Positions 19,401 to 61,300 of a stretch of DNA of 64,000 nucleotides are shown one piece after another. The notes under the pieces were generated by a model, which was not told the origin of the DNA, made no database searches, and worked only from the letters and a program-made list of their open reading frames with translations. Each line of letters begins with the position of its first letter. Positions within the stretch are counted from its first letter, which is position 1. Source of the DNA: Balanoglossus misakiensis (lineage: Eukaryota > Animalia > Hemichordata); NCBI GenBank assembly GCA_040954595.2, contig CM082588.2, positions 1,169,935 through 1,233,934 on the forward strand, written 5' to 3'. The position numbers were made by a program, and so were the translations under genes.

Positions 19401-22400
19401 TTCTCTCTTCTTTGCTTTGACCAACGATGCGAGATTTTTCAAGCAGGTAATGAGATACATAGCCACCAACCACTGTATTCTGTTTAACAATAAAACAACA
19501 TGAAATACTTTAGTTTGTGCCGAAGTTACAGAAACCCCTTTTTAAACCTGACGTGCGATCAGATAATTTTCAACAATGCTCAATCCACACCTTTAATTGT
19601 AAGTTATGAAAAAGACTTTATTTATTTATTATTTGGTAAACATATGTGCCTGCGTTCTGCCATGAACTTACTTTCTCATTGAAATGCATCTCTACAAATT
19701 TTCCAAAACGACTACTGTTATTGTTTCTGACAGTCTTGGCATTTCCAAAAGCCTCCAGGAGAGGGTTGGCCTCCACAATTCTCTGTTCTATAACGCCTGC
19801 ACCTGAACCGTGAGATTCGGTCAGATACCTGTAAACGACAACAAAATATTATCGGTAACTGATTGTTCAAAGGTCAGAGGTCAATTCAAAGGCTGGGTTG
19901 GCCATGGGTGGCCGCCATCTTGGCAGGGTGAAACCATTCATTCAAAGATTAGTTAAGGGACTAACCAAATTCATCTTCAGGAGGGGATTATTCTTACCGT
20001 AGTATATACTTTGTGGATTCTGTTTTTCCAGCACCACTCTCTCCGCTGACAATGATGGACTGACTCATTTTGTAAACTTTCATGTCTCGGAATGCCTTGT
20101 CAGCTGAACAGAGTGACAAGAAAAGAAGACAAAGTCTTTTATTTGTTCAAAAATATTCTGAAATGCTAATCTCATATGTGACAAGCTCTAGACATGTGTC
20201 GTCATATCATGTACAATTCAACTTCTTCAGTCCAGGATGACATCAGGCACGTGATACAGTAGATCCATCATGGCCTCGTGGGGAGGCCACGATTACAAGA
20301 AGTCTAGACAGTCTATTTTCATTCATCACAGTCGGAAAACTGCAGTGCCGGTAGTAATGAAACCACTCTGCCATAATTGGGTTAAGAGGCAGGGGTTCTG
20401 GCTGCCTTCTGTGCGTATATGTGAGCCACTTAGATCAGTCATTCTTGCCAGACATGTACAATATGTTCACGACATATGTAGTGAAATAGTCAGATTCCAT
20501 GAAACCCGACCTGCATGTGGGTTTGACATGCACTAATACAACAATATTAGATTTCCACACACACTGTGAACACACACAGGTGCTGGAGATTAAATTTCAT
20601 GTTCTGTACGCGATTCGATGTTGTACCTACCGATGGCAAACACGTGAGGTGGCAATACACCTAGAGATTTTCCTTGATACTTCTTGATGACGTCTTGAGA
20701 ATATAATTTGGGCATGTCACTGTATGGGTTGACTGCTATAAGAATATTTGCCACATATGTCTGAGGGTGGGGGTGGGGAGAGAGAGACAGATTTGTGAGA
20801 AATCTAATTATGTGAATGCATTGTTACCACTTATGGACAGATTTCTTTCTCAGTTCCTAGCATTCCCCCTCCCCCAATTCATGTAAAATCTGGATTTCTA
20901 AACACTTAAACACTTCATAATTGTTATTCCATGCACATCATTGTCTTATAAAGATTTCGACAGCGACAAATGAATTATTCAAAAGTGGCGCGACTGCTTA
21001 ATGTGGCAAAGTCACTACAAATCCTCCCATTTGTTCTGACAGAGATAGAAAAAATCACATCCGGCTATTTGAGAAATTAGTCTGCATTAGTGCATGCTTC
21101 AGAAAAAGATTGACAAGAAACGCCACTTTGAATTGACAGAGTCTAAATCTGATAACATGCAATGCCCACTGAACAAGGAGTGTATTTATCTCTTTTTTCA
21201 GAAAATACCACAGTTATACTTACATAAATTTGGTTTTTCTTGTATCTAAGTCGTAAATTATTCAGCAGTGTAGCTTCGTTCAAATACATTAAGGCACCTG
21301 AAATTGAAAATAATTGAAAAATAAAATTGTAAATAGAAAAAAAAATATTGAAACATTCTCTTGTTGGCTTCAGGGTTGTTATGCTTGAATGAAATTCTGT
21401 GTAGGACAGGAAAGCAATGAGCAGTGGTGTATTCAAAGGTTTCTGAACACTAGCAGAAAAATACAGTCCATTTTCAAGGAGATTTGCTGAAGGAAGTCAT
21501 CATTTTCAATGGTGAAAAAGAAAAATGACGCACACCATTGAAAAATATTCCTTACTTAGAGTTGGACTATATTCAACATCTTTGCCAATTCATTTTACAG
21601 AAACACAGATGACAGTGATATTATTAATGCCAAATACAGAATGGATTAGATGTGTGATAGATGTCATCAAAATTGACCTTTCTTTTGTTGAGACTGCATT
21701 AACCGAGTCAGAGTAAAATATGTCATCATTTTCCCTTCGATTAAAATTTCCCAGTTGAGCAACGAGTTCCCTGATGATGCCTTTCAAATTATTCCCTGAT
21801 TGTGAAAATTTCACTTTAGGTGTCGCTTCAAGGACCAGACCACACCCAAGTAATTTATCTCAGAAGCTCCCCTCCCCCCCTCTAGGGCTAATTTCTCTCC
21901 TGTGACATTTTAGTTTCGCTTTGTTAATTTTTGCTTCTGTATATAGCGAGATAAACATGTGAATTATTACCACACTGGGGAAGGAGAGAAGTTAAACACC
22001 AAAATATTTAAGTTGAAGATATCATGCCGCAATACTATATTTTTAAGTGGTATCTTTCTCAGTGTTATTTCTGCTAAATACATGATTTCTGTAATTTGAC
22101 ACTTTGACAGGCCTTGTACAATTACACGCAAGATGAAAAACACTGTGTCACACAGAATTCCCATATGTCAGCCCCACCTGGTGTCGGCTTAGGTGATACG
22201 CTGGATAAAAAGCGCACGTCTTAGCTTTTAAAAAAAGGGCATATGCAAAAGAGACCTTGGTGTTAATCAGCCGATCATTGAACCACTTTACTTCACCACT
22301 TAAAGAATTATCCTTCGAAATCAGCACATAAAATAACGTGCTGGTGTTTTTCAGAATATAAAATGAACTCACAGAGGCTAATTTTCCTCAAAGCGCAGGC

Positions 22401-32756: not shown

Positions 32757-35700
32757 CTAGATTCTGAGCAGGTGATTGGTGATATTCTCCCAGCTGGAGC
32801 CCAGCTCTAACTGATAGTAAATAGAAGGGTATGCCTTGTCCAATTGCTTGATCAGGACGAGCACAACTGTCAGCCGGTTTCTCCATTCACTTGGCACGCT
32901 GCCAGACAGCTTCAAGAGATCGTCAAACCACTGCGGCCACTGATTCCTTAACACAGACAACAGAATCACCAGGACAACCAACGCAAAAATATCATTGTAT
33001 GCTTTCCATCCTGCAAAAGAAAGAAAGAAACCATCACACAAAAGAAATAGCATTCTAATTGTTTGTGACAAGAGAACAGAACAGCCCTTGATAGAACACT
33101 GGCATGATGATGGTTGCCAAGGGTGATGACTTACCCAGAGACTTCAGTCCAGCATCCTCTAGTACTTGTATGATCATCTTACTGTTGATTCCAAATGTCT
33201 GGTCGACAGTGTCAGCAAATAACTGGTCAAAGCAGTCAGAAAGGTCTCTCTGTATTTAAAAAACAACACACGGAATAATTTTTTATTTTTGAGAGATACA
33301 AACAGACTGATGGATCCAAAAGTTCCCTTGTTTCCAATCAGCTGGAGATTGTTGTAATCAATGGTAGGTAGACGAATTCTTCCATGGGAAGTTTTTACAT
33401 TTTAAAAGAGGTGTAATTTCAAATTAACAGGTACACACAGTAAATATGCATGCATTCATACATACATGTGATCTATTGCAGAAACAAGCAATCTGCTTAC
33501 CTTCTTTCCGAATATGTCAATCAGAACATCAATTGTAGTCACAGCCTGTGGAGGGTCATAACAAATGTAGATTTTCATATTATGTTACAATGACATATCG
33601 GCAGTATATAATCTCTTTCTTCAACTACAAGAATTTCAGTTAAAAATAAACAATATATTCAGTGGTGATCATAATTAACGTCTGCATTTCAATTTCTTTT
33701 TACCGGTAATAAAACATTAAATCAAACACCAAACAGACATCGATGACTAAAGTTGTTGACTAAGTTTAAATACTGGACTCTTTCTGATTGGTTGATATTA
33801 TTGATGAATCAAATTCAAACATCAGTGTGTCATGCTCTGATTGGTCATCTTGCAATTCTAAAATTGAACTTCTTACAAGCTTTTGTTTCTCTTCTCCCCA
33901 AAGTCCAGATTCAGGTCTTGTGATGTTTGGCAGGCCTGTAGTAGATGTCTCAGCTTCCATAGGTTCTGTAAAAGACAATATTTATAATGTTATTGACAAA
34001 ATACATGATATTTTATTGTAAGGTAAGTTTTACACGCAACTTGTATCATATATGCAACAAACCAGACAAGCCGGAGCAGTACTCTGTGGCCTACACTGTC
34101 CTTGTTTTTGTGTCACCTACTTGGAGATGGCGTCATGTTTTGGAAGGACACCCTCTTTATGGAAAAGGTGTATGGCTATGAGAATAGATTTCGTTCCCTT
34201 ACCTGGAGATGGAATGGCTGATACTCCATATAATTCAGCACCATGACGAATATCGTTATATATCCTATGCCTGGGCTTCCTCACTATTCCTGCATTACAC
34301 AGAGGTAAAGAAGAATTATTCACAAAATACCAGGATTTATGTCCAAGTACATCATACAGAGGAGGAACTTTAATGTAAGGTAAGATTTGTACGCAACTTG
34401 TATTATATATACCGTACAACAATCCAGACAAGCTTGGGCAGTACTCTGTGACCTGCTGGTCTTGTTTTCGTGTTGTCTCCTTTGAGATGAGGCCATGTTT
34501 TGAAAGGACGCCCTAATTCTTATGAAAAGCTACGAGTATAGATTTCGTTCCCTTACCTGGTGGTGGAATGGCTGCTTCCGGTACAGCATTAGATAGTGCC
34601 AGCTCAGAGAGTAATGACATGGAGACATCAGCATCAGCATCACGTTGCCAATCACCATAACCAAGAACTTCTTCATCTTCTGCACCCCATGAACGCCTCA
34701 TACCCACCTTTTTCTTCTTCTTCTTCTTACCAACTAAACTCTCTTCGGCGGCAATCAACTCCACTGGCTTTTCTGCTCGCCAACTGACAGAAGGCGCAGA
34801 CTGAGCAGTAGACTTCTCGCTGACTTTCCCGCACAAGAATGTGGGACCCCCTTTCTTTATTGCTGCATACACAGGATGTACTGGTAAAGAAGAATCGTCC
34901 AGATGCTTGCCACGTCCTCTTCCTCCTTTCTTGTACTGCAGAAAGTAAATTGAACAGCTTTGTCATGTTGCACTGGACACCCAAAAATGGTTAAATAGGA
35001 GTGGTGTAGTTAAAACATTTGATCAACTTTGTTTCTCTGTGTTTAGTTCCTGGGACTCGATTCACAAACATGTTGATACCATGAGTAAAAATATTTATAT
35101 TTCTGTGTTTTTTAAAGTGTTTGATTCAAATATACCAGTCCACGAATTTTGTTTCCTCTAATCAACAGAATAACAGGGAAACGATCAACAGTCGATTTTT
35201 GAGCACATGAAATGTGAATCAAAAATAAGGTTAAATCTTATTCACCACACAACATCTACAGGGATCTAAGATACTATTACATAGTGTATTTAGCTGGTTT
35301 TAGTTATGAGAACTACACAACATGTATTAGAAGCTATTTACAGTTGCAAAGAAAGAGCGTAGCTAGGTTTATTTATGAGATAAATTCTTCTACATACATG
35401 TACCAGTGTGGGAGATGCGACAGATCGTGCTAAAATCTGTGAGGATTTTAGATTTTTTTTCTGTGTTTCCTTTTCAGTGTCAGAGCTTTCAGCAAGGACA
35501 GTTTTTCCGCGGAACTTTCGTGGTTTTATCAGAGGTTTTTGTTTGTCTGCTTCATCGCGTTCCTGCTTTTCAGAAGTTGCTGGTTGGTGTTTTGCTGGAA
35601 TGGGTAGGTCTGCAGTGGACACACTGGGTAAAATCGATCGGTACATTTCTGGTTCAAAGGGCTTCAAATAACTGAGATCTGCAGTCTCCATTGGAGTTGA

Positions 35701-38700: not shown

Positions 38701-41700
38701 TCCCCAAACCATTGGCTAGATCAATGTCTGACCTGACCGAAGGAATATTACATCCATACAGATCCATCGTTTGAGGGCACTTCCTATGCTTTGGGTGTAG
38801 GGCGCACCCTTGAATGTACGATCTTTCTGTCAGCAGAAAAAAAACTGTGATAAACATTTCTTACCAGTGGCTGTTTATCGGCTTCTCTTGTTGATTTCAA
38901 ATCTCGGCGTGATAGTTTACGAGTTCTTACTACAAGAAGCAGATAGGTAAATTTTGTCATTTCTATATTATATGATGACATATTGCTTACTTCAATACCA
39001 GAATAGGTTTGTAAATTTGTTAACTATATTAGTTGCAAACATTAATTGACTTGGTGGCAACATCTACAGTCAAAAAAGCAATAAATCAAATAGCAAGATG
39101 TCTGGAAACCAATCGATTATATCACCAGTGAAACTAATAGCTTCTGATAAAGAGAGAACGCTAACATATTTAAAACTAGTCCAATAATATGCAACACTCG
39201 GCTGTCAATCTGGCAGCAGCAGCAACAAAGCAAACAGAATCAACAGCAGACATGAAAACTCACCTGGGGCACTGGCACGAGATAATGTGGGTGCAGACAT
39301 CAGCTGACTTTCCATCAGGGGAGGGTGCATCACGCTTCCCACTTTTCTCCTCCCTGTTGCCTCCAATCCGACATAACTGTCTTTCTGGCCCATCCCGACC
39401 ATGACACCTCGGTGACGGGGGCGGCCAACAGCTGTGGGGAAGACTGCTTGGGGCTGTAGTGGACCGACCAAGCCAGCTTTGGTCAGCATTGATCCACTGT
39501 CAATTAAAATTGGTGGTCTCTCTTCTTCCTCCTCCTCCTCCTCTTCTTCCTCATCCTCCTCTTCTTCCTCATCCTCCTCTTCCTTCTCTAAATTAAAGCT
39601 ACATGTATTTAAGCACAAATCTTCCAGGCTGTAATCACCGTCATCTATATCGCAATAATCCAGGAGCTCATCAACACCTTCAAAGACAGAAATATAGAGA
39701 CAAAATATAGAGCAAGGTGATGGAAACTCAAATAGTCATAAATGACAAAGCATCCTGAGGAATCATTACAGTGCCCTCTTTGCCAACTTAAAGCAAACAC
39801 TATTTCAGTCTGATTGTAATACAGCAAGTGATTTAATGTTGATTCCTTCATGGAGGTAAATCAGAACCTATAAGGGGTCACGATATAACCAATTACATCA
39901 CCTGAGTCAGCCATCATTGGAAGATCAGGCCGTGACTCCAGGATCAGCCGTTTCAACAGTAAATTCTGATGCTACACATTGCATTTACCTGTAAAATCAT
40001 TGAACAATTCTATTTCTATTGCTTTATCCATAAATAGGTCTCTTTCTGTTTCTTCCATTGATTCGAAAAACCTTAGAATAAAACAAAACTAATTAAACAT
40101 AGAAGCAATGCGCAATTATCTACAAATCTATGAGAAATAAAGCAACTCCCTTGAATAGTTAAATATCATTTTCATAAACTGTTGCAATATATGCATGCAG
40201 TCTTGAAACTTTCCCCATTGTGTCAGTCCAAGTACCCTACATACCAGACCAGAGAGCAAATATCCCAAAAAGTTTTCAACTAACAACAGCACTCTGCTGA
40301 GCTTGTTCATGGAACCACAAGAGAACTATAATGATTATAGATCAGACTTACCCTTTCAGTTCTTTCACTGAATCATTGTAACTGTCCTCGTTAAGAGAAT
40401 CAAGGCTCTGATAACATCCTGCAAATAACAATTGTAGTATCATCAAAAAATTCTAAGGAAAGCCAGACTGTTTTCAGCACCTGCATAGTAAATTTCGAAA
40501 ATGTAAATCACAGGGCGTTTGTTGTCTTTGTGATAAATGTTTGAATGGGTCCTGTCTGGACAATAATACATCAGAAGGATGGATGCCTATGGTTGAATAG
40601 ACTCATGTACATAGGTTATCCATACCCATCACACAAATCCCCTTCATCAATTTTTCCAAGCAGCAAATGATTATATGAGATGCTCACCATCTAATGTGTC
40701 AAATGCTATGGATTTATACTTTTCCGTGTCTCCCTGTACTTCCTTGACAAAGTTGGCAAACGAGTATGCAACCTGAAAACAAAATCAGACACTGATTTCT
40801 CTTAAATTTTGACATGTAACTTTTGTCGTCACAGATCTGGACTGCAGCTGATATCCACAGTTGTCTAAAGCTAATGTTTACTGGATGTGAATTTGGGTGT
40901 CTATTATTAACCCCCTTACTTATAAATAAGATAGGCCAACCACAATTGGTTATATTACAGGTGATTCCAAATGCATAAAAAGGGGTGTTGCCTACTTACT
41001 TGCAGCCTCAGGGGATGTGAAGGTTGTAAATCTTTGATGGCGATTTCATGGGCGTCTTTGTAAGCTCTCTCGGCTTGAAGGACCATGGAAAGATTCTCGC
41101 TGGTCTTTGCCCGCTCCAGCAACTTTTTGATTTCTTCTTCACCACTCAGCTGTAAAAAAGTAACAAGTCATTGTAGATGACACAGTCTCCACTAGACGAC
41201 CTGCTGTGGTTCAATAATACACTGAACAGTGAACTGATATGTAATAATGCAAATAACCACGGAGGAGTGACCATGAAATAAAAGACACAAATCTGCATGC
41301 AAGAGTATGACAAACTTCTTACTGCCACTTCTTTGCATGGTTTCTCTTCCCATCCAATGTAGGTCAGAATGTCGACATCTTCCTTAGCAACCAGCTCTTC
41401 AATGCTTGGTCCTCGAGGTCCCAGTAACTCCTCATCCTAAAAAAGTCAGAGTTGAGGAGAGATTTACACAATCATGATTGGAACATTCCTACTGAAAGCA
41501 TTTTCATCAGCGTTTAGATACCAGTGAATGACTCCAATAACATTTCTTACCTTCTCTCTGGTTTCCACGGCAACAAAGCTGGTGAACTGAGTCACTATAG
41601 AATACTCCTTACTGATACTGATGATATAATCTTTCTGCTCACTCTTCATTACCTCATGCTCTGTGCGATCCATGTCTAAAGTCCCATCCTCCCAATCTCT

Positions 41701-44700
41701 AATGATGGCACGAGCTGTCAGTTGGTGGAGGATCTTGGGAGACAAACAACATACCAAGAATGAGGTAAAACAAGATTTACCAATGTTTCTGTGCCTGCTA
41801 TAAAGTTGGAATGAATTACATATTACAATTACACTACATAGCCATTTTACCCTTTCATCACCGTGGTCCAATCCAACCCATTGTTCTCTATGGTAAGGTT
41901 GGACCTCTAAAGAGGGAACTGGGGGTGAAAGGGTTAACTTGCTTCTGAATAAATCTGCACTCATGTGCACAAAGTTCTCACCTTTCCTCGAGTGATGTTC
42001 AGGTCTGCAGTTGACACCATGGTTGAAACTTGTTGATGATCAATTTCTGCATTCAGTGTTGCCTGAAAAATTGTCAAAATAGGCCTGTTGGTATGATGTT
42101 TTAAGTCAGAAATGACAGCTGAACAGAAGCACCGATATTTTTTCTGTTCTGCAAAACTAACTTTAATCTTCGTCTAGCTGAGTACACTTTTAATTTTATT
42201 TGATTCAGAAGTAATTTGATCAGTTAACATTTACACACGAAGAAGTAGTTCAGGAAACTTGAAAATAAATAGAGATCTTCATGTATACCTGAGTACAGTA
42301 TGGCACAAAACCATAGACCACCTGGCGAGAACCACTGAATAGCGAGACAATCTGATTGGGTGCCTGGATGGGTTTGGGAGCGTCACTGTCAAACTGTTGC
42401 CAAGCAACATGCACTGATGTCAATGCTGGATGTGCTGCTTTCAGGAGTTGGGACTTCACCTGGAGAAGACAGGAATTGTGGGAAAGAATGACAGACAAAC
42501 AGACAGACAGGGAAATGCCTCTTAGAAACTGACTACATGTATCAAGTTCTACCCCATGCTCATATGGAGCAGAAAAAATCAAAGAAGAATGCAAGAAAAC
42601 AGAAAAGACAATCAGTTTTACCTTTCTTTCCCACTTTGATTTAGTTTTCTTGTCAAAGTATTCATACGCACCAGCGCCAACTCTGGCCATCGCCTGAAGT
42701 AAATGTCGGTTTGCAGTTGAACTGAAATTTAAAAAAGAACAAAAATATGAGAATATTTTTAATTTTTATTTAATCACAATTTAATATTTCCCTCCCAAAT
42801 GCTCAAACATCCAAAAGAGCGTGACCTCCCCCATGAATCCCCCCCCCCCCCAGGCCCGAAGAAACTGTCTAGTCCCTAAATGGATTTTACCTGACTCCAA
42901 GGGTAAACACCCTTGTGTGTTGATTACACCGGCGGATAGATTCCAGTGTCATGCTCTCATTGTTGATGTGACCGTCCGAGAGAAGGAATATGTTGCGCAG
43001 ACCGGTGCTGGGGGAGAGTTGGAAGAACGAGTGAAGAGGCCGCCAAAGTTCTGTGTTGCCCATGTCGCCTGTGTCGCAGCACAGCTGGAGAAACTTCCGA
43101 GCCAGTTTGTGGTTTTTCTCAGTTTTGGGCAAGCTGCTCGGGAACAGCTCAACAAAGGCTGAAAGAAATGAATTATTATTAACAGTTAGAATGTTAAATC
43201 ACTCTGAAATTCTTATCAGAATTAGCACATATGGCTTTTATGATACCAGAGCATCAAATGTTAGTCATTTCTAAAACTTCTGAAGTTGATTTGCTACAAG
43301 ATCTTACGGATCTGTAAACCATACTCTGTCAAAGCCGCAGCTAAAATGCCCCAGCACACAACCACTTACTGGTGCCAAAAGTCACGATATTGAAAGTACA
43401 ATTCTCAGGTAAATGATGCAGCAACAACAGCAAGGCTGTGAGTGCCGTGTTCAGGGTATCCTCATCCTCATCCATGGAATTCGACATATCTAACAGAAAC
43501 ACCACTTCATATCCATCCATGCTGTCGGCTTCAAATTCCGGGTAAAATGTCAACATACAAGCCTGTGTTGGGGAAAAAAAACATTATCCGGCATTCAGAA
43601 TCATGTTATCAACTATCTGTAACGAACTGGGTATTATCTTGTTCTCCCTAAAAGCACATTGAAATTCCTGATATTTAACTTGTCATTGTAGTCTGTACAT
43701 TTAGAGCCAGCACTATTATCATCAATGGACAATGATGTCTCCTGTGTGATATATGTATCTCACCTGACTGTCAACTTTATCCGGATGTTTTTCCACCCAC
43801 ATCCTGGGAACATGGATCTCGGCAAGCCCAACCAGCAGTTGGAAGCCATCGCCCAGAGTTGAGTTCTCATCCAGCGCCACAACCGCTTTAGTTGCAGTTC
43901 GCTGTAAAACAAGTGAGTCGCAAAGTCATCATTATTCATTCACCAACACTCATATCCTTTTTTGTATCTTATAAGTAATGATATGAACATGCACTGAAGA
44001 TAGTCAGACCAAATTGAGTCAATCCTTGAATGAGATTTCCACAAGCTATCAAGGAGTAACAAGTATCACACCAAGTCAATGCTTGCGAATAAAATCACTT
44101 GCTATCTATACATACTTACCTTGATGGAGATTTCATGAGTTGGTGATTCTATCGTTCGGATATCAAATGGCATTTCAACAGAAATTTGCAAGTGCACATG
44201 TCTGTCAGGATAATAAATATGTAATTCTTGTGAACCCAACATTTTGTACATATTTGCTATATTTTTTTAATTCATATGGATACTATATTAAAGTCAACAA
44301 AGAAAACGGAACCATATATAAGCCCTCTAGACATCACTTTCTCTTGACTGATGAACTCACCCTTGACCTTCGGCCACTTTCACAGTTTTCACATCTGCTT
44401 GAGTTTCTTGAGAAAGTGCAGAATCTTTCTTCCACGGTGCCACACTCCCAGGAAGTTGGAAATTAATCTTATCCCCGTCCACACTCAGCTCAGTGACGTA
44501 TGTAATCTTGATCAGGACATTTGCTTTGGGAGGCAGGTTGCCCACACTCACTGTGAATACATCCTGGTTGGATGAAACGTTCAAAAAATAACTATAAGGT
44601 ATCATGCATATTTATGCATTCTCATTGGTTGGAGTCAAGCATGTGACACTGCAAGTGTGATCTCATTGGCTATGGTCAGTCACTAAAATCAATGGATCAA

Positions 44701-47700
44701 ATAACATATAGGGGAAAAGATTAACACAAAACACAAATTACCGGAGTTTCTTCATCCATGAGATACGCCCCATGCCCCTTGCTGATGGCTTCCTTATATT
44801 CTTTGTGAGCAGTTTCCTTTTCTTTGACTTCACCAACAATGTGTTTGCCGTTGATGAAGGCTTCAAAACCGCACACTGCTGCCATGGTGTCAAGGGGAAA
44901 CACATACTTTGCCTCTATTGGTATGCTGCTCTCATTTGAATATGCTTGCATGACTATCACCTGGCAACAAGACATGATTTCTTCCCGTTATTCATCAGTA
45001 GAATTTACTGTCAGGGTACGTCTGACTAAACATAGACTATCAGTGAGACAAATATCTTTATGCACAAAACATCCATTATTTGTTGTGCATCAAGGATGCA
45101 ATGATGCATACATTTTCTATTCTCGAAGATGCCCTTAATTGACGGGTTTCACTGTACCTCCAAGACTTGATCAATCTATCAACTTACCTTAGCAACAAGG
45201 TCCAATAGTTGAGCTTTCACGTGCACCGACTTCAAGGGAACTGGTGCGTCACCACTTGAGACCAAACCTGGTTTGACTTTTGACATGGGATCAGTCATAT
45301 TCATAATACCATCCAAGGCTGGAATTGACAACAATTTCTTAGACGAGCATCCACATTGATTACTTGAAGATTGTATCCACACATAAAGGATATTACTTCA
45401 ATGTTAATATTTGGCCAATCTTAAAGAAGTACCGTATAGACGCTTCACAGTATTAACTCTGGTCGACTTCAAATGAAGACTCTTACCCCCATCCAAGTCG
45501 GAGTAACTTGATGAGCTGGACGAGTCATCAGAGCTGCTGTCGTCAGAATCAGAATCTGTTTCTTCGTCCGAAGATTCATCCTGACTGGACGTGTCTTTAA
45601 GCGAAATCGCTTTGGGAACTGGTTTGAGAATGTCACCCTGCAAGGTGAATTCAACCAAGTATCGGATTCGCTGTTGGTTTGTGTTGTACACCACAAACTC
45701 ATCATCCTGTGAAACAAAACACCACATGCAGTGGGTAGTTAGTTGCCATAATGTGAAGAGCAGAAAGATCTTGTTAGGACAAGACCCAAGAAGCCACTGT
45801 GAAATTAGCAAATCCTGAAGAGTTGTGACCTAAAGACATAAAAACATAAGTCATAGCCTATTTAGAAAGAACAGATCTCACTTTGAAATCTGACGGTTTC
45901 AGGTCGGTTCCCTTGACGCCTTGAACACTGTTGTACCCATCTGGTGGCGCTGTCATATTGGTGTCAGATTTGTACATCTCTTGGCACTTCCCTAGAGCCA
46001 CATCAGCCACAACCATCCATCTGGTACCTCTCACCTGATTGGGCGAGCTGTACTTGGCACTTGTGCTGTAAAGACAAAAATAAACATGTCAACTTACCTT
46101 AGAGGCCTCACCTTATTCTTGGTGTGTGGTCCACTAAATGTAACGTATAAACAAGTAGTGGCTACAGATAACAATCACCTTGCAATCTGCACCTTGTGAA
46201 AACAACTAACACCCACACAAATGCAAATATATGGTTTGTACCAAGTTTTCAGCCACAGGAAGATTTTTTACCTTGATGAGTCAGTGAAGTATATTCCATG
46301 GCCGAGCATTCCCGGATCAGTTCGTTTTCCACCAAAGTCATCCACCACTACTTTGGGTAATAACAAGCCTCTATAAAACACAAATATTAAACCAGATTAA
46401 CATGACATGTAGATTCAACTTAATTTCACTACTTAATTGTTACATTTTAATGACAAAATTTGACTTCAAGAAAATTGCTTCACTTTTTTCTGACTTCATT
46501 TTGAAAACACGTACTCCCTCCTACCTTGACAAAATTCCAACAAAGTTAGCAGGCTTGGATGCATGGAACAAGAGCCTGGAATCACCAAGATCTTTGACAA
46601 AGCTACTTTCTTCAACTGACCGGCTCACGGCATAGATGTTTTCTATATTCAGCGAATGGAATCTGTGATATAAATAATACACACATGAAGATTATCAGGG
46701 TTAGAACCAGACATGTTCCTCACTCTGTTCCTCATATGTTCACTCCCTCAATCAATCTATCTCTCACTTACTCACTCACTGCTGTAGCACAGAGATAATC
46801 TTACCCGTCCAAGAAAACCAAGTGTTCAATCCTCTTGTATTCAGAGTCACCTTTCTCAAGATGTTCAATGTGGCATCTTAGAGCATTGTACTTGGCTTTT
46901 GTACTGCCAACACTGGACCAGTTTGTGGCTTCATTCACACTGATGATGTCCCGTATCAGCTGTAAAAAGATAACACGATTACTGCTCAGCAATTCCATCA
47001 AAAAAGATTTGCCAAATATGATTTACAAATTTATATTAAGCCCCCCAAAAAGCTGATGACACTGGGTTTAGTTTACTAGTTGACAAATTATTGTACACAA
47101 ATACATATACTGTACACACACTCACGTACACACACACACAAGATTGAAAAAAAGTAACTGACAACTTATCGACTGACTTACTTGACACAAATCCTGCTTT
47201 TGAGCAATCAGACTTTTGTTGTCGATAAGTGGAATGTTGGTTTTGTGCGGAATGGCGCGTTGATATTCCTGTGTAAGACTTGACAGTTCCTTTTGTGTGG
47301 CCCCGGATTCAATGGCTCTCCTCAACTGTAGTAAAACAGCCTCTGCTTTCTCAACCTATATGGGTTTAATAAGAATAGTCATACCACCAGGAAAACACAC
47401 ATTTGGTAACTCTGAAAACGTTTGGAGTCTTTTTATTAAAATGTGAGAGTACTATTAAATGCCACTTACTTGTTCAATTTTTAATGAGGCCACAGGATTC
47501 AATAAAACCTCATCTAATTTCCCAAGAGCTTCTTGCCAAATCAGTTTCACTAGCGTAGACACTTCAGGTGAGAGATACTTGGCTTCAGTCGTCTCCAACA
47601 TCATCTGTAAAGCACAAACATGTGACATCAATTCGACCAATGAGATCATTTACAAAGTTCACAACACTGATTTTCTAAATATTTTTTGAAGTTTGATCAA

Positions 47701-49607
47701 TATAATTTGACATGACAGCACTATACCTTCCTGAATTTGCCAGATCCTATATACCTGGAGACCAAATCAAAGGATTTTGTCATCTTTCTCGGACCTTCAC
47801 TTCGTTGATTGTACAGGAAAGTATAGCATTCCAGAGCCTCATCAGCAGAGTGTAGGTAACGATACTCTCTAGTTCCGCAAGATTCATCCTTGTCAGAGAG
47901 AAAGACAACGAAAATTAGACTTTTTTTTAAAAAGTACCCTTTTTGGACATTCAAGATTTTCACAAACATTGCTTTATGCTGGATTGGCAAAGCATCTCTT
48001 TGGGGGCTTCAGCAGTAACCTCCCTATTCTTGCGAGAAGACTGAAGGGGAACATATACCAATGATTTCTGCTGCAACATATACAAATTTCATCAAAAGAA
48101 ACAATAACCTGAATAAAAAGTAAGCAGTATCTTACCTTCATTTCTGATAGAAGACCATAGTGGGTGACGACTCTAAAGTTATACTCATTGTCATTTGGTT
48201 TGTCTTTCAGATCATTCAGTGGTTGTACGTGGATCTCCATGACGAAGAAGGTCACCTCGCCACTTTTCTTCTCTTTCCTCTGCAAAAATGAACGAGGTAA
48301 AAGTTCAAGTTGAAATTATACAGGTGGGACCAGGCTTCTGTTGTTTACAGTGCAGGCTAGCTATCGTAAGAGGGTTGATATTAATGAATGATCTTCAGTG
48401 GAATTGAACAAGCCAAAAGTAACCAATGTTTCATGATCACAAGTTGACATATGATTTAACATACTGTGCTAAGTCACATGCTTGTGATAATGGAAATATT
48501 GAATACTTTCTGATGTTTCTGCTCTCCATAAGCCCTTACCTGTAAGATGGTACTTTTGGCAACCTCATACTTATCTTCATCAAAGAATGGTGCTGTGTCA
48601 TAGCCATCTCTCCAGACTCTAGTTCAACAGAAAATTGAAATATGAAAATATACTTTATGTGTGCCATGCCCTCCAGTTGTTATTGTCCCCCATATTCAGG
48701 GCCAATCCTCTAATAGCTAGAATACATCACATGATACTGCTGGACCAGTCAATATAGCTTGAGTTTTTGATTGACATTTATGGGCGGAGCAAGATAAAAT
48801 AGCAGAACATGTACTGTGCTACTGCAGACACAACAAGACTAGTTGATCATTTGCTTTAATGCAAACACAGACCTGTTTACTTTATTCATCCCATTTGACA
48901 CATGTCATGACCATACTCACTTTATTTTGTTTATGTTGAAAGTTGTCTTGACAGTTTTCTGTTTCTGGTCATTTTGCTGAAGTTGTTTGCTAGCTGTTGG
49001 GAGAACAGAATGAGATGGAAATGTGTTCTCGTAGTCCAAGCGAAGAAAGCAAGCATATAAAGAGTTCTAAATTTTGAATAAATTGTGCATCCCAGTCCAC
49101 ATCTTTTGACACTTACCTACAATCTTTCCAGAACTGAATTCATTGGATCTGGAGACTCCATACACAACATACGGATCAGCATCCAGTAAAGCTGCTTTCT
49201 CCACACAATCATGGATGAAATCCATGGATACAACCGGAATACCATACTTGACAGCTTGTCTCATTTTATAAGATAGGTCTCCTTTCTCAGGGTTGCTGAC
49301 CACCAGATACGTACTCTGGAATTATAACAGAGGATGTGTGACTATTTAACGAAATTGTTATGTGATTATGTCAAAAAGTGTTTTTCCTTCTTTTCTATGA
49401 AAGGCAAATGTACCCGTTGAGTTTCTTGGGTTGTGGAAATGACACCTCACAAAATAATCAGCGATATGTGACTTTCACCTTCTTTGTGATGATGTAACTG
49501 ACAACTCCATCATTGTTTGTGATCTTCTTCCGCAAATCTTGCTTCTTCTTGAAAGGGACACTGGTGCTCAGTTCCAGTGCAATTTGACATTTGCTGAAAA
49601 TTCCCAT
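32757..49607 (-). CDS. PARP4: PARP4 / vault poly(ADP-ribose) polymerase: BRCT - WGR-like - regulatory - ART - VIT - vWA - long insert - C-terminal domain
   Basis: Start [13 protein letters not shown] (49479-49607, BRCT). Catalytic exons carry LLFHAS (~46525-46662), GMLGHGIYF (~46272-46370) and [17 protein letters not shown] (~45488-45706). VIT: [47 protein letters not shown] (~44742-44960). vWA: [11 protein letters not shown] (~43371-43563), IFLLSDGHI (~42891-43158), [10 protein letters not shown] (~41551-41733). Last exons [10 protein letters not shown] and [22 protein letters not shown] resemble the recalled human PARP4 C-terminus (YPSICPRLELGNDWDSATKQLL). About 43 coding exons; a few small exons in 36900-39700 are uncertain. 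Confidence 0.95.
34017..34590. repeat. Diverged tandem duplication (period about 355 bp) of an exon end, splice donor and intron inside PARP4
   Basis: 34017-34240 aligns with 34374-34590, e.g. TGTAAGGTAAG..ACGCAACTTGTAT..CCAGACAAGC..GCAGTACTCTGTG..TAGATTTCGTTCCCTTACCTGG..TGGAATGGCTG. The exon ends translate AIPSPG and AIPPPG. Confidence 0.9.
35404..36824 (-). CDS. PARP4: PARP4 large low-complexity exon: polyproline tracts followed by FG/GFG-rich repeats
   Basis: Within ORF 35338-36897. GT donor after ..ASPTL (phase 0) fits the next exon, YKKGGRGRG (34557-34935). The 5' boundary is approximate. Confidence 0.85.
37244..37393 (-). CDS. PARP4: PARP4 exon carrying a ribosomal P-protein C-terminal-like motif, [15 protein letters not shown] (37299-37343)
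   Basis: TAG acceptor, GTAAAT donor, 150 nt, phase 1-1, open frame. The P0/P1/P2 consensus is EESDDDMGFGLFD. Confidence 0.8.
39264..39587 (-). CDS. PARP4: PARP4 exon: poly-Glu tract plus actin N-terminal fragment (39322-39516)
   Basis: TTTAG acceptor, GTGAG donor, 324 nt, phase 1-1, no stop codon. Ungapped match to actin residues ~6-70 including [21 protein letters not shown]. Confidence 0.85.
40352..41149 (-). CDS. PARP4: Three PARP4 exons (41000-41149, 40688-40772, 40352-40418) encoding a 14-3-3 C-terminal-helix-like segment
   Basis: Spliced translation ..[25 protein letters not shown]|[28 protein letters not shown]|[22 protein letters not shown]. Canonical CAG/GT sites with compatible phases (0,0,1,2). 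These exons are too short to appear in the ORF track. Confidence 0.85.
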
Positions 49608-52446
49608 AATTGCACAGGATTCTCAGTGCACACATACACTGCTAGTATTTCTGTTATTCTGTTAGAACAAACAAATGAGTTCACATAACAGAATTAAAGT
49701 TTAATTTAAACATAAAGTTATTCTGGGTTTTTTAACATAGCTTGGGAGATATCATACTGTATGTCACATTCTATAATACACCTAATTTAAATACCACCTT
49801 TCTGTTCCTGTTTTCCTTTGAATGTTAACAGGTGAAAAAAGTTAAGTCATAGGACAAAAATGTGCTGACACAGCACAGCTCAGTTTTCAAGAGTACAGCA
49901 CTATCAAACTTCATTCAATATAAGATGTAAAAAAAGTTTATTTGACTCAACGCACTAACTGTTGGTCAAGACTTGAATCGTTGTGGGTGGGGTGGGGTGG
50001 GGTGAAGGTGGGTTGTTTACACGCCCCTGAAATTATTTTTATTTCCTTGTTCACTTTCATCATGGAGGAGTGTATGTATCATTACATGTGTACTGTGGCG
50101 CTTATATCGATCATACGGTATGCACACATATGAAAAATGCTCAGTAAACTTAATACATATACATATGTGTGTAAACGTGTCCATATCCCATTTGATATCT
50201 GTCATAAATATTATTTGCGGGCCTGAACTTCAAGGTGAAACTCAAGAAGTCAGAGCGATCACTAGCATCACACATCTGATCAGGTGGGCGTGGCAAAACT
50301 GTGTACATATGTAAGCAGTATCTTGCAGCTGAAAACTTACCTGTGTTGCAGACCTGCGATCGAGCTGAGTTATGATATTCTACTCATTGACGAACCGGTT
50401 AAAATCTGCTTTTCAAAGCAGCATCAACCTGATCAAACGCGATCACTGCATGACTAACTCTCCCGTAATAGAGCGTGACGTTTGTTTACACCGTCGACCT
50501 CTTCCGGGTCAAAGGTCGCCTGATGTCAACTGTCGCTAAGAAAGCTGGAATTTGCTTGGATACCAAGGTTCTGAAGCTTCAGTACCGTAGCTCAAGGTTT
50601 TGCCTTGAACAAAACCCTTTTTTTAATTGCAGAAGAGTTCTATTTTGCTGTTTTGTCTCTTTACAATTCTGTTGGCCTTTGCACAGTGATGAAACTGTCC
50701 TATTTCTGCACTGGATGCAACAGTTAACATAGGACTCTCTTCAAAGACAACTTGAACCAAAAGGTTTACATACATCAGGGATGTATTGTAGACAATGTTT
50801 ATCACAGACAGCAAAAATAAAAGTATAGCCATTTACAATTGGCATGTGTAGCATTTGACCCTTTTCATTATTTTATTCCCATCAACTGCATCTTGTCCTG
50901 TAGTTGTGCGAAACTTGCCCACTGTTCCACTTGGCAACATACAATATGCAATCAATTTGCCCACTCACACATGGTATCATTCTCTGATATAGTCAATCAT
51001 TCAACAAACACAGGCCCAACGCAATTATTTCCTGTCCCAAAAACCTTTTTATTGGCAACAGTAAACAAAGAAGCATTTCTGTTATGTACATGTCTTAAAG
51101 TTCTCTATATCTACTTGTACAATGCTTCTACACAACTACGAAAAAGAGGAAAATTCAGAGGAGAGCAACCAAAAAATTATACGACCTTTCTTTAAAAATA
51201 AAACCCTAAAGCACAAAATACATACTGTTCAGGATAAACATAACACTTAATTCTATTGAAGTTGCATTAACTAAAAATATTTTCTTTAAAGCGTTTTTAA
51301 CAATCCTGCATGTCGCAGGACAACTGTAGCGGCTAGCAATTACTACTTTTATCAGGTGAACTTTATCAGTAAGCCCTCCATTGATGGCTCTTTTTGGCCA
51401 GCAAAGATTCAACAGATACGGGGGTCACACATAAAGTGGCCCATTCAGTTATCACGCACATCAGAAGACATGCACAAAATATCCATTCGGATCGGTCAGT
51501 CTTTCGTGTACGAAACAGCGACTCAAAAACTTTTGCTGGCGTCCAAAGTCCTCCAACTCCACAAAGCAGGAGTGTCTTGAAATAAACAAGAGAAACCGAA
51601 AAAACAAATTCATTTTCACAAAAGTTACATTTGCTTACAGTGAATGTTGAAATTGCTCATTTCAAGAGCGTTTCATTCGCTGTGGAAATCAAAGTTGTCT
51701 ACAATGGTTACTCCATACACAGCAATGTTAACTTCATAGTAAAAATAGTTACATTTTCTGAAGTCTCAGAATGTTAGAATAACAGACTACAATGGCCAAA
51801 ACTTGCAAATAAAATCATTAAGGGTAACTTTATCAGCAAAGACATCCCCCCAAAGAAAAACATTACTTTTATCATAATTAAACAGGTTTTCTGTGAACAT
51901 AGTGATGGCAGTCTGGGAAAAGTTTTACAAGAATTGTTTTTATGTGACCTTGGGTAGAAGAGGCAAAAACCTGTGTTATCACTACTCTCTTACCCTGATC
52001 AGTATTAGTATAAATTATGGAAGTTAATAAATGTACAATCAGCCATTGAAATCAGCTTTGTGTTTTTTGTTGGTTCTTTAAATTTTCAACTTGTACCTTT
52101 CTTCACATCGACTGTGCTGAGTTAATTTCAAACTAGAAAGACTGGTGCCATGTGACAGAAAGGTCAAGCAAGGGTCATGCAAACAAGCCCATTGACAAAC
52201 ATGTCACTCTTAAGACTTGGAACTGGCCAATCAATCTCTTGTACATGTAAATTTGTCGCAAAAAAACTTTTTTTCTGTCGTCAATGAACCACTTTATTGT
52301 AAAAAAAAAAGATCATTCCTTGTGATGAATCGTTGCGATCTCACTAAAGAATGCAATATACTACAACGACCCCTACAGAGGTCAGAGCTTGTCCAGATAT
52401 CTCAAATGATGCCCGAAGGGTAACATGCAGGTAGTTCCAAGACTCT

Positions 52447-58346: not shown

Positions 58347-61300
58347 ATGTTCAGCCTGATGGGGAACTGTTTTGTTTGGATCAAAGAGAGGCGAGAGCCT
58401 CCAAGGTAAGTTCTCATCTTTATCAATTTGAATGAATTATTGAATATTTATGATTGACATTGAGAAGCTATCATTGACATACCCTGTTTAACTTTTATTT
58501 ATTTCGTCTCAGGAAAGTGACATTATGTTTGGTTGGTCTTGATAATGCTGGCAAAACTTCTGCCATCAAAGGCGTCAAAGGAGGTGAGTGTGAAATGAAC
58601 ATAATATAATATAATAATATTTGATAACTTCAGAATCTATACAAACAATAGATGCAACGACTTAATTCTGTCCAGTGTTGGTCACAATTGTGTTGTTATA
58701 CAACAGTTTTTTAGGTAAATGAACGTTGGTCTTGGAGGTGATCATTATCTGTATGTACACCATGATTTGAGCAATGAACATGATCTCTGACATTTAATTG
58801 GGTACCAAAAGTTTGATATCAGATTTGATAAGACTGGTCAGTTTCTTTGTTACCGTAGTCACCCTAACATGATTGTAAACTGACACTATCTGACACAGTG
58901 CTGTCATTCTATGGGAGTGCATTGAACTTTGAATTTTTGAATCAACTTCCTTCCAGTGAAGAGTTTCTTGCAGTTTGTAATTCATACACACACTTAGGTT
59001 TTAGTCATTGATCCCACCTGCCCACTACCACACCTAGTGCCATTGACTTGTGGTGTAGGGATTGTAATATAGAGTAACCAATTCAATGCTTACAGTCATA
59101 TAGGGCAAGGTCAACATTACAGTCATACATCAAATAAACATTTTTTTAAACACAGCAGGTTACTAAGTACTGATCAGTTCAGCACACACAGACTGACCTG
59201 GACAAAAAACAAGACACCTGCAGAGTAAATTAGCAAAATTATACTCAATTTTTACTCTGCTGTGTAACTGAATTGTGAATTGCTGGAATTACCCACAGGA
59301 AAATTGTGGCAATTAGTTATTACAGCCTCATACATATCAGCTTCTTGACTGGTAAATGTACTGAGCCATAAAGTTAACAAAAATGATTAATTCAACCCCA
59401 GGGTACAGGGTATCGTCATTGGAACCAAGGTGTAGAAACAGAGATAAGTTTAATTCTCAAGATGCCAAAATGACCATCTTCTCGCTATTTTCCCTTCCAC
59501 TCCTTACAGAGTCTCTAGAAACTGTCGCCCCTACGATTGGATTCTCAAACGTGGACTTCAAAGTGGACAAGTTCCAAATCACCGTCTTTGACCTTGGTGG
59601 TGGCAAGAAGATCCGCAGCATCTGGGGAAACTATTATGCAGAGAGTCACGGCGTTGTGTTCGTCATCGACGCTGCAGATCAAGAGAGGCTCCATGAGTCC
59701 AGGGAAACCCTGAAGGCACTACTCAGTAATAAACGCGTGCAGGGAAAGCCGTTGTTAGTGTAAGTATAGCGGTATAAATAATATTATCGAGAAGCTGAAC
59801 AGACTTAGGAAAAAGACAGGATGAATTCTAGACTATACTTGACAGGAAGTTTACAATTGTCATTATAGTACCAGTGCTTGGGACAGCCTGTTAATAACCA
59901 CTCAGCCCCCAGGAGACCATTCTACCATATCCTGTGGTGCCAATTAGAGCTAATTTATGGTGACTTTCCTTCTAATAAGTATTCTACTGTCTCGTTTTCA
60001 CAGCCTTGCAAACAAACAAGATGAAGAGGGTGCCCTTGATGAAATTGACATCTGCGAAAAACTTAATCTTGAAGATATGGTGAATGAAAGCCAGTGTCCA
60101 TGCAGGGTGGTAAGTTATTCTCAAATATGATGGTAACCAAATAAAGCTGATGATAAATATCCTCATGCAAATTATAAATTCTATTTCTCTTGCATAACAA
60201 ATGAAATTGAGAAGTAGAATGAACCACTGTCATATACCCTTCTTCTTTTTAGGAAACCTGTTCTGCAACTCTGGGAGTTGGCAAGAAAATGGACAAGTCG
60301 ATCAGGTCAGGGTTCAAGTGGCTTCTGATGACCATCAGCGAGGAGTGGGAGGAGCTTGGCGACAGAGTGGAGAAGGACACCAAGGAACAGAGAGAGCAAG
60401 AAGCCATCGAGTTGAAAGAAAGAATGGAACGTGTCAGGAAAGCCCGAGAAGAAAGGTGAAATCATTGTACTAAAATGCTCTTCTTTGTAACATGGATAAG
60501 ACTTGCCATTATAGGAACAAAGTTTATTTTTTGGTCAGTACCAAAAAGCATGTCACACTGATATTCCCATAAATCATTTGAAATCTTGGTATTTGCAGGG
60601 AAAGGCAGGAAGAGGAAAGGAGGAAAAAAGAAGGAATTGAAAAGGAAGACAGTGAGGATGATGATGATGATGTCCATGTTGATGCCAATCCATTCAAACC
60701 AGTAGATGCTATCAAAGTAAGTGTTTCGCTGTCACATTTATTGGCCAGTATGCCCTCAGACATTCCTATGGCCCATGCAGATCCATACACACTTCTAGAG
60801 CAAAGAGTGACATTGTTACATTTTCTTTTCGTAGTTTGATGGCAAGGCAAAAAAGCCCAAGAAGAAACCGACAAAACAAGAGAAACTCCCAGAAGACACG
60901 GATGAAGACAAGACAAAAATGAACAAACACAAACCGTACGTGTCTGATGAAGACGATGAGGAAATTGTAACCAGGAAAACACATAAAAGTCCAAGGACGA
61001 AGAAGAAGAAATCGCCACAGAAACAGCAAATCAGCGATGAATCAGAAGAACTGTCTCCAAAATTAACTCCTAGATCAAGGACTAAACGGAAAACGTATGG
61101 ATTCTACCTGTCGGATAGCGACGAGGACAACAAAAGAACTCAACAAACGGGACTTACAAGACAAAAGTTGGCCAATGACTTCAGCAGTCAGAGTAAAGAT
61201 GGGTATGATAGTTACGAAATGGACAGCGCTAGTATCGAGAATGATTCCAAGGCTGTGAGAGCCACAAAAGGTCATCGAATTATTCAGGTCACGTCGGATA

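Follow-up and report, generated by a model that had tools for sequence, protein, structure and literature searches.

PARP4, the vault PARP, is described in vertebrates as a protein with BRCT, PARP, VIT and VWA domains, a long disordered tail, one very large exon and a C-terminal domain (Daugherty et al., 2014, PMC4038475; Suskiewicz et al., 2023, PMC10450202). In the main text of the former and in others, the tail is treated as a featureless disordered region, and the largest exon in mammals, which is disordered and positively selected, was proposed to form a pathogen-recognition surface (Daugherty et al., 2014); the text of a 2025 paper further indicates that the MVP residues binding PARP4 are conserved in vertebrates only. 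Among non-vertebrate proteins, the closest described relatives are the PARP4-like proteins surveyed by Perina et al. (2014, PMC4245714), in which PARP, VIT and VWA are followed by 14-3-3 and 'actin', and the architecture of PARP4 with both appendages has been in print since that year. Here, we analysed a 64,000-nucleotide stretch (hereafter the window) of contig CM082588.2 of the hemichordate Balanoglossus misakiensis, which holds a further member of this group: a PARP4 gene on the minus strand with an actin N-terminal module, the conservation of which is concentrated in the hairpin of the DNase-I-binding loop (D-loop).

The gene that carries the actin-like feature is PARP4. From 42.9 to 49.3 kb, frames of the minus strand gave Pfam matches to BRCT_2 (E 1.1e-5), PARP (6.6e-4), VIT (5.7e-25) and VWA_3 (4.8e-6), the per-exon BRCT and PARP matches falling under the curated cut-offs, and the order BRCT, PARP catalytic, VIT and VWA on one gene is that of PARP4 (clade 5, the vault PARPs). 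Additionally, 11 annotated PARP4 proteins from oysters, mussels, a hemichordate, a tunicate, a sea anemone and a sponge are colinear by tblastn with the window from 49610 down to the actin stretch. The closest of them is that of the hemichordate Glandiceps (P0167), with 2190 summed bits versus 1375 for a mussel, and its C-terminus (residues 2056-2325) aligns at 34866-34603, 33246-33124 and 33011-32766. The actin-like feature lies on the same minus strand in a stop-to-stop frame of 176 aa, 39208-39735(-), that encloses the interval 39264..39587, and from 5′ to 3′ this frame encodes a short Cys/Asp-rich lead, an acidic tract and the actin N-terminal module, as follows:

39520..39588, minus strand: acidic tract of 23 residues (22 Glu/Asp and 1 Lys), from the translation
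39322..39540, minus strand: actin-homologous stretch, from the acidic N-terminus to about residue 72, from phmmer against PDB and from PF00022
39367..39429, minus strand: D-loop hairpin, actin residues 35-55, 20/21 identical to actin

The actin likeness of this exon is real and far above chance. The 107 codons of 39265-39585(-) matched 123 distinct PDB actin chains at E<=0.01 in phmmer, with alpha-cardiac actin as the top match (E 1.1e-19; query residues 16-88 against chain residues 14-86, ungapped), Pfam Actin (PF00022) was matched at 28.4 bits against a cut-off of 27 over profile positions 3-61 of 410, and the ESM Atlas search returned clusters of actin fragments only. Compared with the bivalve actin P0117, 36 of the 65 positions of actin residues 6-70 are identical, and these identities are spread very unevenly (p = 2.5e-6, Fisher exact test), reaching 20/21 in residues 35-55, where Q41R is the sole change, versus 12/30 in residues 5-34 and 4/17 in residues 56-72. 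The phosphate loop reads DSGSMLTK, that is, D-S-G-S-M in place of the actin D-N-G-S-G, and acidic residues precede the module in most orthologues too. An initial annotation, made from the letters of the window, had described an actin N-terminal fragment within PARP4, with the same two counts over residues ~6-70 and 35-55, a phosphate loop drifted to DSGSMLTK and a Glu/Asp tract of more than 20 residues in front; the recount and the searches bear out each of these.

The same module was found in PARP4 proteins of distant animals through three protein searches, each restricted by protein length. With the window exon as query, 26 matches were obtained from 315 candidates, among them an oyster 'PARP4-like' protein (P0013) in which VIT and VWA are followed by the module. 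For the range of 524-1670 aa, with the oyster module as query, a script scan for truncated modules was applied to the 120 listed of 311 matches together with the earlier ones (145 proteins); besides the query P0013, it flagged the bivalve PARP4-type proteins P0069, P0074, P0075 and P0087 and the protist VIT-VWA protein P0100, and most other listed matches were whole-actin tandem or fusion models. In the range of 1671-4770 aa, 46 candidates gave 33 matches, 24 of which are full-length PARP4 proteins with the module, originating from one ctenophore, five sponges, three cnidarians, oysters, mussels, Dreissena, a hemichordate and a tunicate, so that the module is represented in Ctenophora, Porifera, Cnidaria, Mollusca, Hemichordata and Tunicata, counted here as six phyla. 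In all 17 orthologues compared with Pfam, the best Actin stretch falls within profile positions 2-74 of 410, always downstream of VIT and VWA. Judged by these comparisons, the PARP4 actin module is ancient and occupies the same place across six animal phyla, and no recent exonisation is involved; the initial annotation had called the fragment exonised, which, if taken as the capture of a decaying pseudogene in one lineage, does not hold for a module found at one PARP4 position from ctenophores and sponges to a hemichordate and a tunicate. The association of PARP4 with actin probably even predates animals, because the 2014 survey lists, in its main text, 'actin or actin-binding domains' on PARP4-like proteins of a choanoflagellate, Capsaspora and Acanthamoeba, next to appended 14-3-3 in four amoebae, a lancelet, a sea urchin and Capsaspora (Perina et al., 2014).

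What has been kept within the module is informative. The alignment, designated A1, holds 21 modules, namely that of the window and 20 others, with the near-duplicate isoforms or close relatives P0150-P0153, P0156, P0157 and P0159 and the fragments P0069 and P0075 left out. Twenty-one positions are invariant in all 21 modules, D11, G13, K18, G20, G23, P27, R37, P38, R39 and H40, followed by G42, V43, M44, G46, M47, G48, Q49, K50, D51, Y53 and G55, and 13 of these 21 columns lie in hairpin residues 37-51. Conversely, V10, N12, G15, Q59 and H73 are actin-like in none of the modules. N12 and G15 are part of the phosphate-binding loop of actin, and since neither is ever kept, every module has lost nucleotide-loop residues while holding the hairpin. 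On this pattern, the hairpin-confined conservation reflects selection and not even decay, as the initial annotation had supposed from the single D-loop at hand, and the view now draws on an essentially invariant hairpin in 21 modules of six phyla. In residues 36-51 of the hairpin, position 41 alone varies, being Q in 15, R in four, M in one and K in one of the 21 PARP4 modules. Arg41 had been considered as a signature of all fragment modules and was rejected, as 15 of the 21 carry Gln and the word-based retrieval had favoured the query's own Arg. Beyond the hairpin, the modules have shared endings that are unlike actin: (A/V)(T/C/A)-G stands at the actin A-Q-S site in the 12 bilaterian modules except the tunicate's, four of the five sponge modules continue with SKRGILT(L/M)(R/K)SPF and the fifth (Ephydatia) with ...SKRGILTVKSPF, the Hydractinia module ends in ...SKRGILTMSSPF and the ctenophore module in ...SKRGILTLTNPL.

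The phylogeny, built from 67 columns of 21 PARP4 modules, 5 further fragment modules and 22 actins (48 N-terminal stretches in all), places the window module as sister to the hemichordate module (support 97/94) and unites 11 bilaterian PARP4 modules in one group (94/98) separate from the actins of the same taxa, while near-zero branches hold together a cluster of 20 of the 22 true actins. Therefore, the modules do not follow the actins of their own taxa. A single clade of all 21 PARP4 modules is absent from the free tree and is not rejected by the approximately unbiased test on these 67 columns (p = 0.17). Moreover, some states of the modules are foreign to the animal actins in the set: the mussel modules, like three of the six from oysters (M. 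gigas, C. virginica and O. edulis), have A52 where those actins have S52, and four modules have R41 in place of Q/T41, which is evidence against ongoing gene conversion. As a weak proxy for the same process, third-position GC is 13/21 in codons 35-55 versus 23/47 in the flanks (p = 0.43).

As judged from its sequence, the PARP4 module cannot be a working actin, because it covers about one-sixth of the fold, has lost the phosphate-1 residues and has nothing past about residue 60 to 72; the exon that follows is unrelated to actin, and the complete four-subdomain fold of ~375 residues is not present. Compared with canonical actin (PF00022), residues ~5-72 are homologous, with the 20/21 hairpin and an acidic N-terminus in common, whereas N12 and G15 are replaced in 21/21 modules and the sequence from His73 onward is absent. 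The module differs likewise from whole-actin fusions, such as primate POTE-actin and, among the matches obtained here, the NACHT/TPR-actin and Sec23-like-VWA-actin proteins, in which actin is also joined to unrelated domains but the actin domain is complete, while that of PARP4 is truncated and non-catalytic. When A1 was supplied to AlphaFold2, the predicted structure had a mean predicted local distance difference test score (pLDDT) of 67, with a three-strand beta-meander at residues 7-31 (pLDDT 75-84) and a hairpin without secondary structure (pLDDT 54-66). The most conserved residues would therefore be the least structured ones, a pattern of a recognition surface rather than of a fold core.

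Based on these findings, we propose that the invariant D-loop hairpin on the flexible tail of PARP4 may be a molecular mimic that captures, or competes for, factors reading this loop, a proposal to which we give about an even chance of being right. In actin, the D-loop hairpin inserts into the groove of the next subunit in filaments and binds DNase I, its Met44 and Met47 are oxidised by MICAL and its Tyr53 is phosphorylated, and some bacterial enzymes cross-link the loop at Lys50 or cut it at Gly42-Val43. PARP4 would display a near-exact copy of this hairpin, and a factor that reads the D-loop on actin would be caught by, or diverted to, an ADP-ribosyltransferase; the candidate readers are the barbed-end groove of actin itself, a host enzyme acting on the D-loop, or a pathogen factor. 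Since the module would be unable to fold or to bind nucleotide as actin does, selection would preserve the hairpin as a recognition surface, and the hairpin would be as constant as in actin because the copy must stay recognisable to actin-shaped partners.

The exons of the tail were derived from the window sequence alone, by splice sites, phase and open frame, and are given here in the direction of transcription together with the flanking parts of the gene:

41323..49610, minus strand: upstream PARP4 exons for BRCT, PARP catalytic, VIT, VWA and post-VWA parts, by Pfam and colinear tblastn
41436-41323, minus strand: post-VWA exon, 114 nt, phase 0-0, AG/GT
41149-41000, minus strand: 14-3-3-like exon 1 (14-3-3 residues ~122-176), 150 nt, phase 0-0, AG/GT
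40772-40688, minus strand: 14-3-3-like exon 2, 85 nt, phase 0-1, AG/GT
40418-40352, minus strand: 14-3-3-like exon 3 (14-3-3 residues ~206-221), 67 nt, phase 1-2, AG/GT
40071-39989, minus strand: small linking exon, 83 nt, phase 2-1, AG/GTAAAT, without homology support of its own
39677-39264, minus strand: proposed full actin exon, 414 nt, phase 1-1, donor CAG/GTGAGT at 39264/39263
39587-39264, minus strand: alternative actin exon of the initial annotation, 324 nt, phase 1-1, AG at 39589-39588
37393-37244, minus strand: P-stalk-like exon, 150 nt, phase 1-1, AG/GTAAAT
36824-~35400, minus strand: large exon with proline runs and Phe-Gly repeats, 5′ end at 36824 in phase 1, frame closing at 35341
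32766..34866, minus strand: C-terminal PARP4 exons, by tblastn to the C-terminus of P0167

In this model, 39264-39677 is predicted to be an exon-like open frame of PARP4, with canonical splice sites and consistent phases. When the seven complete exons are spliced to the 5′ segment of the large one, the frame runs through 496 codons with 0 stops, versus 20 and 31 in the other two frames, and it also stays open (0 stops in 466 codons) when the acceptor at 39587 is used. The 5′ end of the actin exon is probably 39677 rather than 39587, because the pyrimidine tract is stronger (a fraction of 0.77 ahead of the AG at 39679-39678 versus 0.55 for that at 39589-39588) and because the 30 extra residues have counterparts in the hemichordate (P0167) and oyster proteins. 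Thus, of the symmetric 324-nt exon in phase 1-1 that had been annotated initially, the arithmetic stands, while its 5′ boundary gives way to the likelier upstream acceptor. The phase of the 414-nt exon is compatible with both adjoining exons, the linking exon at 40071-39989 being the only reading that takes phase 2 to phase 1 between the 14-3-3 and actin exons, and the GC content of the actin exon is 0.51 versus 0.36-0.39 in the introns on either side. The frame is retained when the actin exon is skipped, and therefore this exon could act as a cassette. The large exon, the largest of this gene, gives a low-complexity alignment to the P0167 tail, and it probably corresponds to the positively selected largest exon of mammals.

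The actin module is not the only copy of a host protein in this tail, a point that had escaped the initial annotation. The three exons just upstream of the actin exon are predicted to encode the C-terminal half of 14-3-3 (~residues 122-221). Exon 1 matched 14-3-3 gamma in PDB (phmmer, E 5.7e-6) and Pfam PF00244 (E 2.7e-5; profile positions 124-163 of 223, a partial match under the curated cut-off), and it aligns with P0167 and with the sponge protein P0162; exon 3 gave 21 weak PDB matches (E 0.35-0.7), 20 of which are 14-3-3 at chain positions ~202-244, colinear with exon 1; exon 2 alone had no PDB match in phmmer and was assigned by eye from its colinearity with the P0167 tail. The order 14-3-3 then actin is common to the window, the sponges Oscarella and Corticium and the hemichordate Glandiceps. 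Downstream of the actin exon, the P-stalk-like exon matches Pfam Ribosomal_60s (PF00428) weakly, at E 0.068 over the last 13 positions of the profile (76-88 of 88), and had no PDB match in phmmer, and by a strict pattern its motif has counterparts in 9 of 23 PARP4 proteins, from oysters and three sponges.

Copies were also matched with Pfam in the tails of the orthologues. One is 14-3-3, at 3e-19 and 2e-22 for two sponge proteins and at 1e-6 for that of the hemichordate. The others, in P0168, P0170, P0154, P0013, P0149, P0155, P0162 and P0176, are a whole ubiquitin that keeps its ...LRLRGG end (1e-20 to 1e-27, in a sponge and Dreissena), a synaptobrevin SNARE motif (~1e-13 in C. virginica and a sponge, and by precomputed matches also in Saccostrea), a substrate-binding piece of Hsp70 (1e-22 to 1e-29, in three oysters and Dreissena) and WH2 in three sponges (E 5e-8, 2e-4 and 2e-3). 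The VAMP copy of C. virginica extends to the expected start of the membrane anchor, and the set of cassettes differs between lineages. P0087 of Pinctada has a calmodulin-like sequence after its actin module, which may be a gene-model fusion. From these tails it seems that the PARP4 tail may be a set of host-protein copies that bring the readers of hub proteins to the enzyme; the 'hub protein' theme is partly a detection effect, as homology reveals only fragments of very conserved proteins.

Several other explanations of the hairpin were weighed against its being a mimic. The hairpin might couple PARP4 to the cytoskeleton by docking in the barbed-end groove of actin, and would then tether PARP4, or cap or nucleate filaments together with WH2 and polyproline. 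The invariance of V43, M44, M47 and their neighbours would suit this, these being groove-contacting residues of the D-loop, as would the WH2 motifs in the three sponge tails and the long proline runs of the large exon, and the actin and actin-binding appendages were read as a cytoskeleton link in the main text of the 2014 survey (Perina et al., 2014). However, groove binders such as WH2 vary widely, so near-perfect identity over 20 residues is unexpected, the longitudinal-contact residues K61, R62 and I64 are retained in just 15, 11 and 8 of the 21 modules in A1, and the ubiquitin, VAMP, Hsp70, 14-3-3 and P-stalk copies would be left unexplained; we regard such coupling as possible but unlikely. 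The comparison with WH2 and thymosin-beta4 motifs is instructive here, as these too are short, lie on disordered tails and would bind the same groove, but their sequence is unrelated and widely variable, in contrast to the invariant PARP4 hairpin. A regulatory role in cis, in which hairpin and acidic tract would serve as pseudosubstrate, as site of automodification or as partner of another PARP4 domain such as the 14-3-3 half or the VWA site, would be in keeping with the position of the actin module directly after the 14-3-3 half in four genes and with the adjacent Glu/Asp tracts, which could accept ADP-ribose, but the slot before the module is taken by ubiquitin or VAMP in other lineages, and we consider this role quite improbable. 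Least credible of all, to the point that we give it hardly any weight, is a recent exonised pseudogene, a neutral passenger or a gene-prediction artefact, that is, an intronic actin retrocopy, unused or tolerated. The fragment has no intron, where many animal actin genes have one at that position, and a past origin from mRNA would fit this; against it stand the uniform position of the module in six phyla and the non-actin states that these copies have in common, the uneven divergence (p 2.5e-6), the open frame with canonical splice sites and right phases derived from the window alone, and the GC difference between exon and introns.

A broader possibility is that the tail arrays copies of host surfaces that toxins and proteases attack, as an integrated decoy or tripwire. 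The cassettes would be strung between the ADP-ribosyltransferase and a C-terminal anchor, an effector that binds a cassette would be trapped and ADP-ribosylated, and an effector that cuts one would free the enzyme and lead to a defence response. The copied pieces derive from host proteins, by homology to actin, 14-3-3, ubiquitin, VAMP and Hsp70, and each copied protein is a classic toxin target. What is copied are interaction or cleavage surfaces, namely the D-loop, the VAMP SNARE part ahead of the anchor, ubiquitin with RLRGG and the P-stalk-like tail, the presence of cassettes varies by lineage, and the exons of the actin and P-stalk-like cassettes are symmetric, in phase 1-1. Additionally, the adjoining exon is positively selected in mammals (PMC4038475, main text). 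On the other side, invertebrate PARP4 is not known to have an immune phenotype or to interact with an effector, the actin and 14-3-3 cassettes have persisted for very long, which most decoys do not, WH2 is not a copy of a target, and the ascertainment effect noted above accounts for part of the hub-protein theme, so that we find this explanation doubtful. In the same tentative sense, and by analogy only, such an array might be for animals and Amoebozoa what integrated decoys are for plants, the amoebae being included through the published domain lists. Plant NLR integrated decoys and the NLRP1/CARD8 tripwires likewise have a copy of a host target built into a defence-related protein, whereas PARP4 has no known receptor or signalling domain, or effector.

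Some points weigh against D-loop mimicry itself. The mimic role is read from sequence and a structure model, and the inclusion of the exon in this species from sequence features and homology. Most of the orthologues come from automatic gene prediction, the models of which are able to absorb homology-supported frames, and all were retrieved through the module, so isoforms without it would be missed. Twenty invariant residues would make a long linear motif, a housekeeping role would account equally well for conservation between sponges and a hemichordate, and WH2 and polyproline in some tails suggest ordinary actin regulation instead of mimicry. Finally, no vertebrate PARP4 occurs among the 33 matches of the 1671-4770 aa search, and the module would therefore be dispensable in the vertebrate lineage.

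In the literature, the closest account remains that of Perina et al. (2014), the main text of which lists the appendages as domains, and in which the limit at residues ~5-70, the loss of the nucleotide loop, the confinement of conservation to the hairpin and the P-stalk, VAMP and Hsp70 copies are unmentioned. For vertebrate PARP4, an actin-like part is undescribed in the main text of the papers cited, and the word 'actin' occurs 0 times in that of PMC10450202 and PMC12280208. More generally, the literature searches and the main texts consulted gave no account of the 'actin domain' as a truncated piece whose nucleotide loop is dead, of a hairpin invariant across phyla, of the accompanying P-stalk, VAMP and Hsp70 copies, or of a functional test.

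A truncated actin module with an intact hairpin and a divergent remainder was also observed in five non-PARP4 proteins (P0018, P0019, P0021, P0026 and P0007), which comprise a VWA protein, two related proteins of ~840 aa without other Pfam domains, an Asn-rich protein of 610 aa and a protein of 629 aa, the last of which resembles the ctenophore PARP4 tail. In the Anaeramoeba VIT-VWA protein P0100, actin profile positions 44-407 come first, followed by a Glu/Lys-rich linker and then positions ~1-48, an arrangement that is due either to circular permutation of one actin or to a tandem of two truncated units. The protist proteins P0108, P0131, P0161, P0163-P0165 and P0175, one of them named as a Balamuthia protein, combine a NACHT NTPase, TPR and a complete actin in an NLR-like layout. 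As for the neighbourhood of the gene, a myosin VI gene lies downstream on the minus strand at ~10467-19509, with matches to the motor, lever-arm and cargo-binding domains, and an exon of an Arf-family GTPase lies on the plus strand at 59365-59760.

In conclusion, this work recasts the disordered tail of non-vertebrate PARP4 as a series of defined, testable candidate baits, in a family whose role, together with that of the vault particle, has been a standing question for decades. If actin regulators are what the hairpin catches, PARP4 would be linked to the cytoskeleton. If pathogen effectors are caught, the tail would represent a previously unrecognised animal decoy system, which would fit the positive selection seen in mammals, and such a decoy function would give a concrete role to PARP4 and perhaps to vaults.

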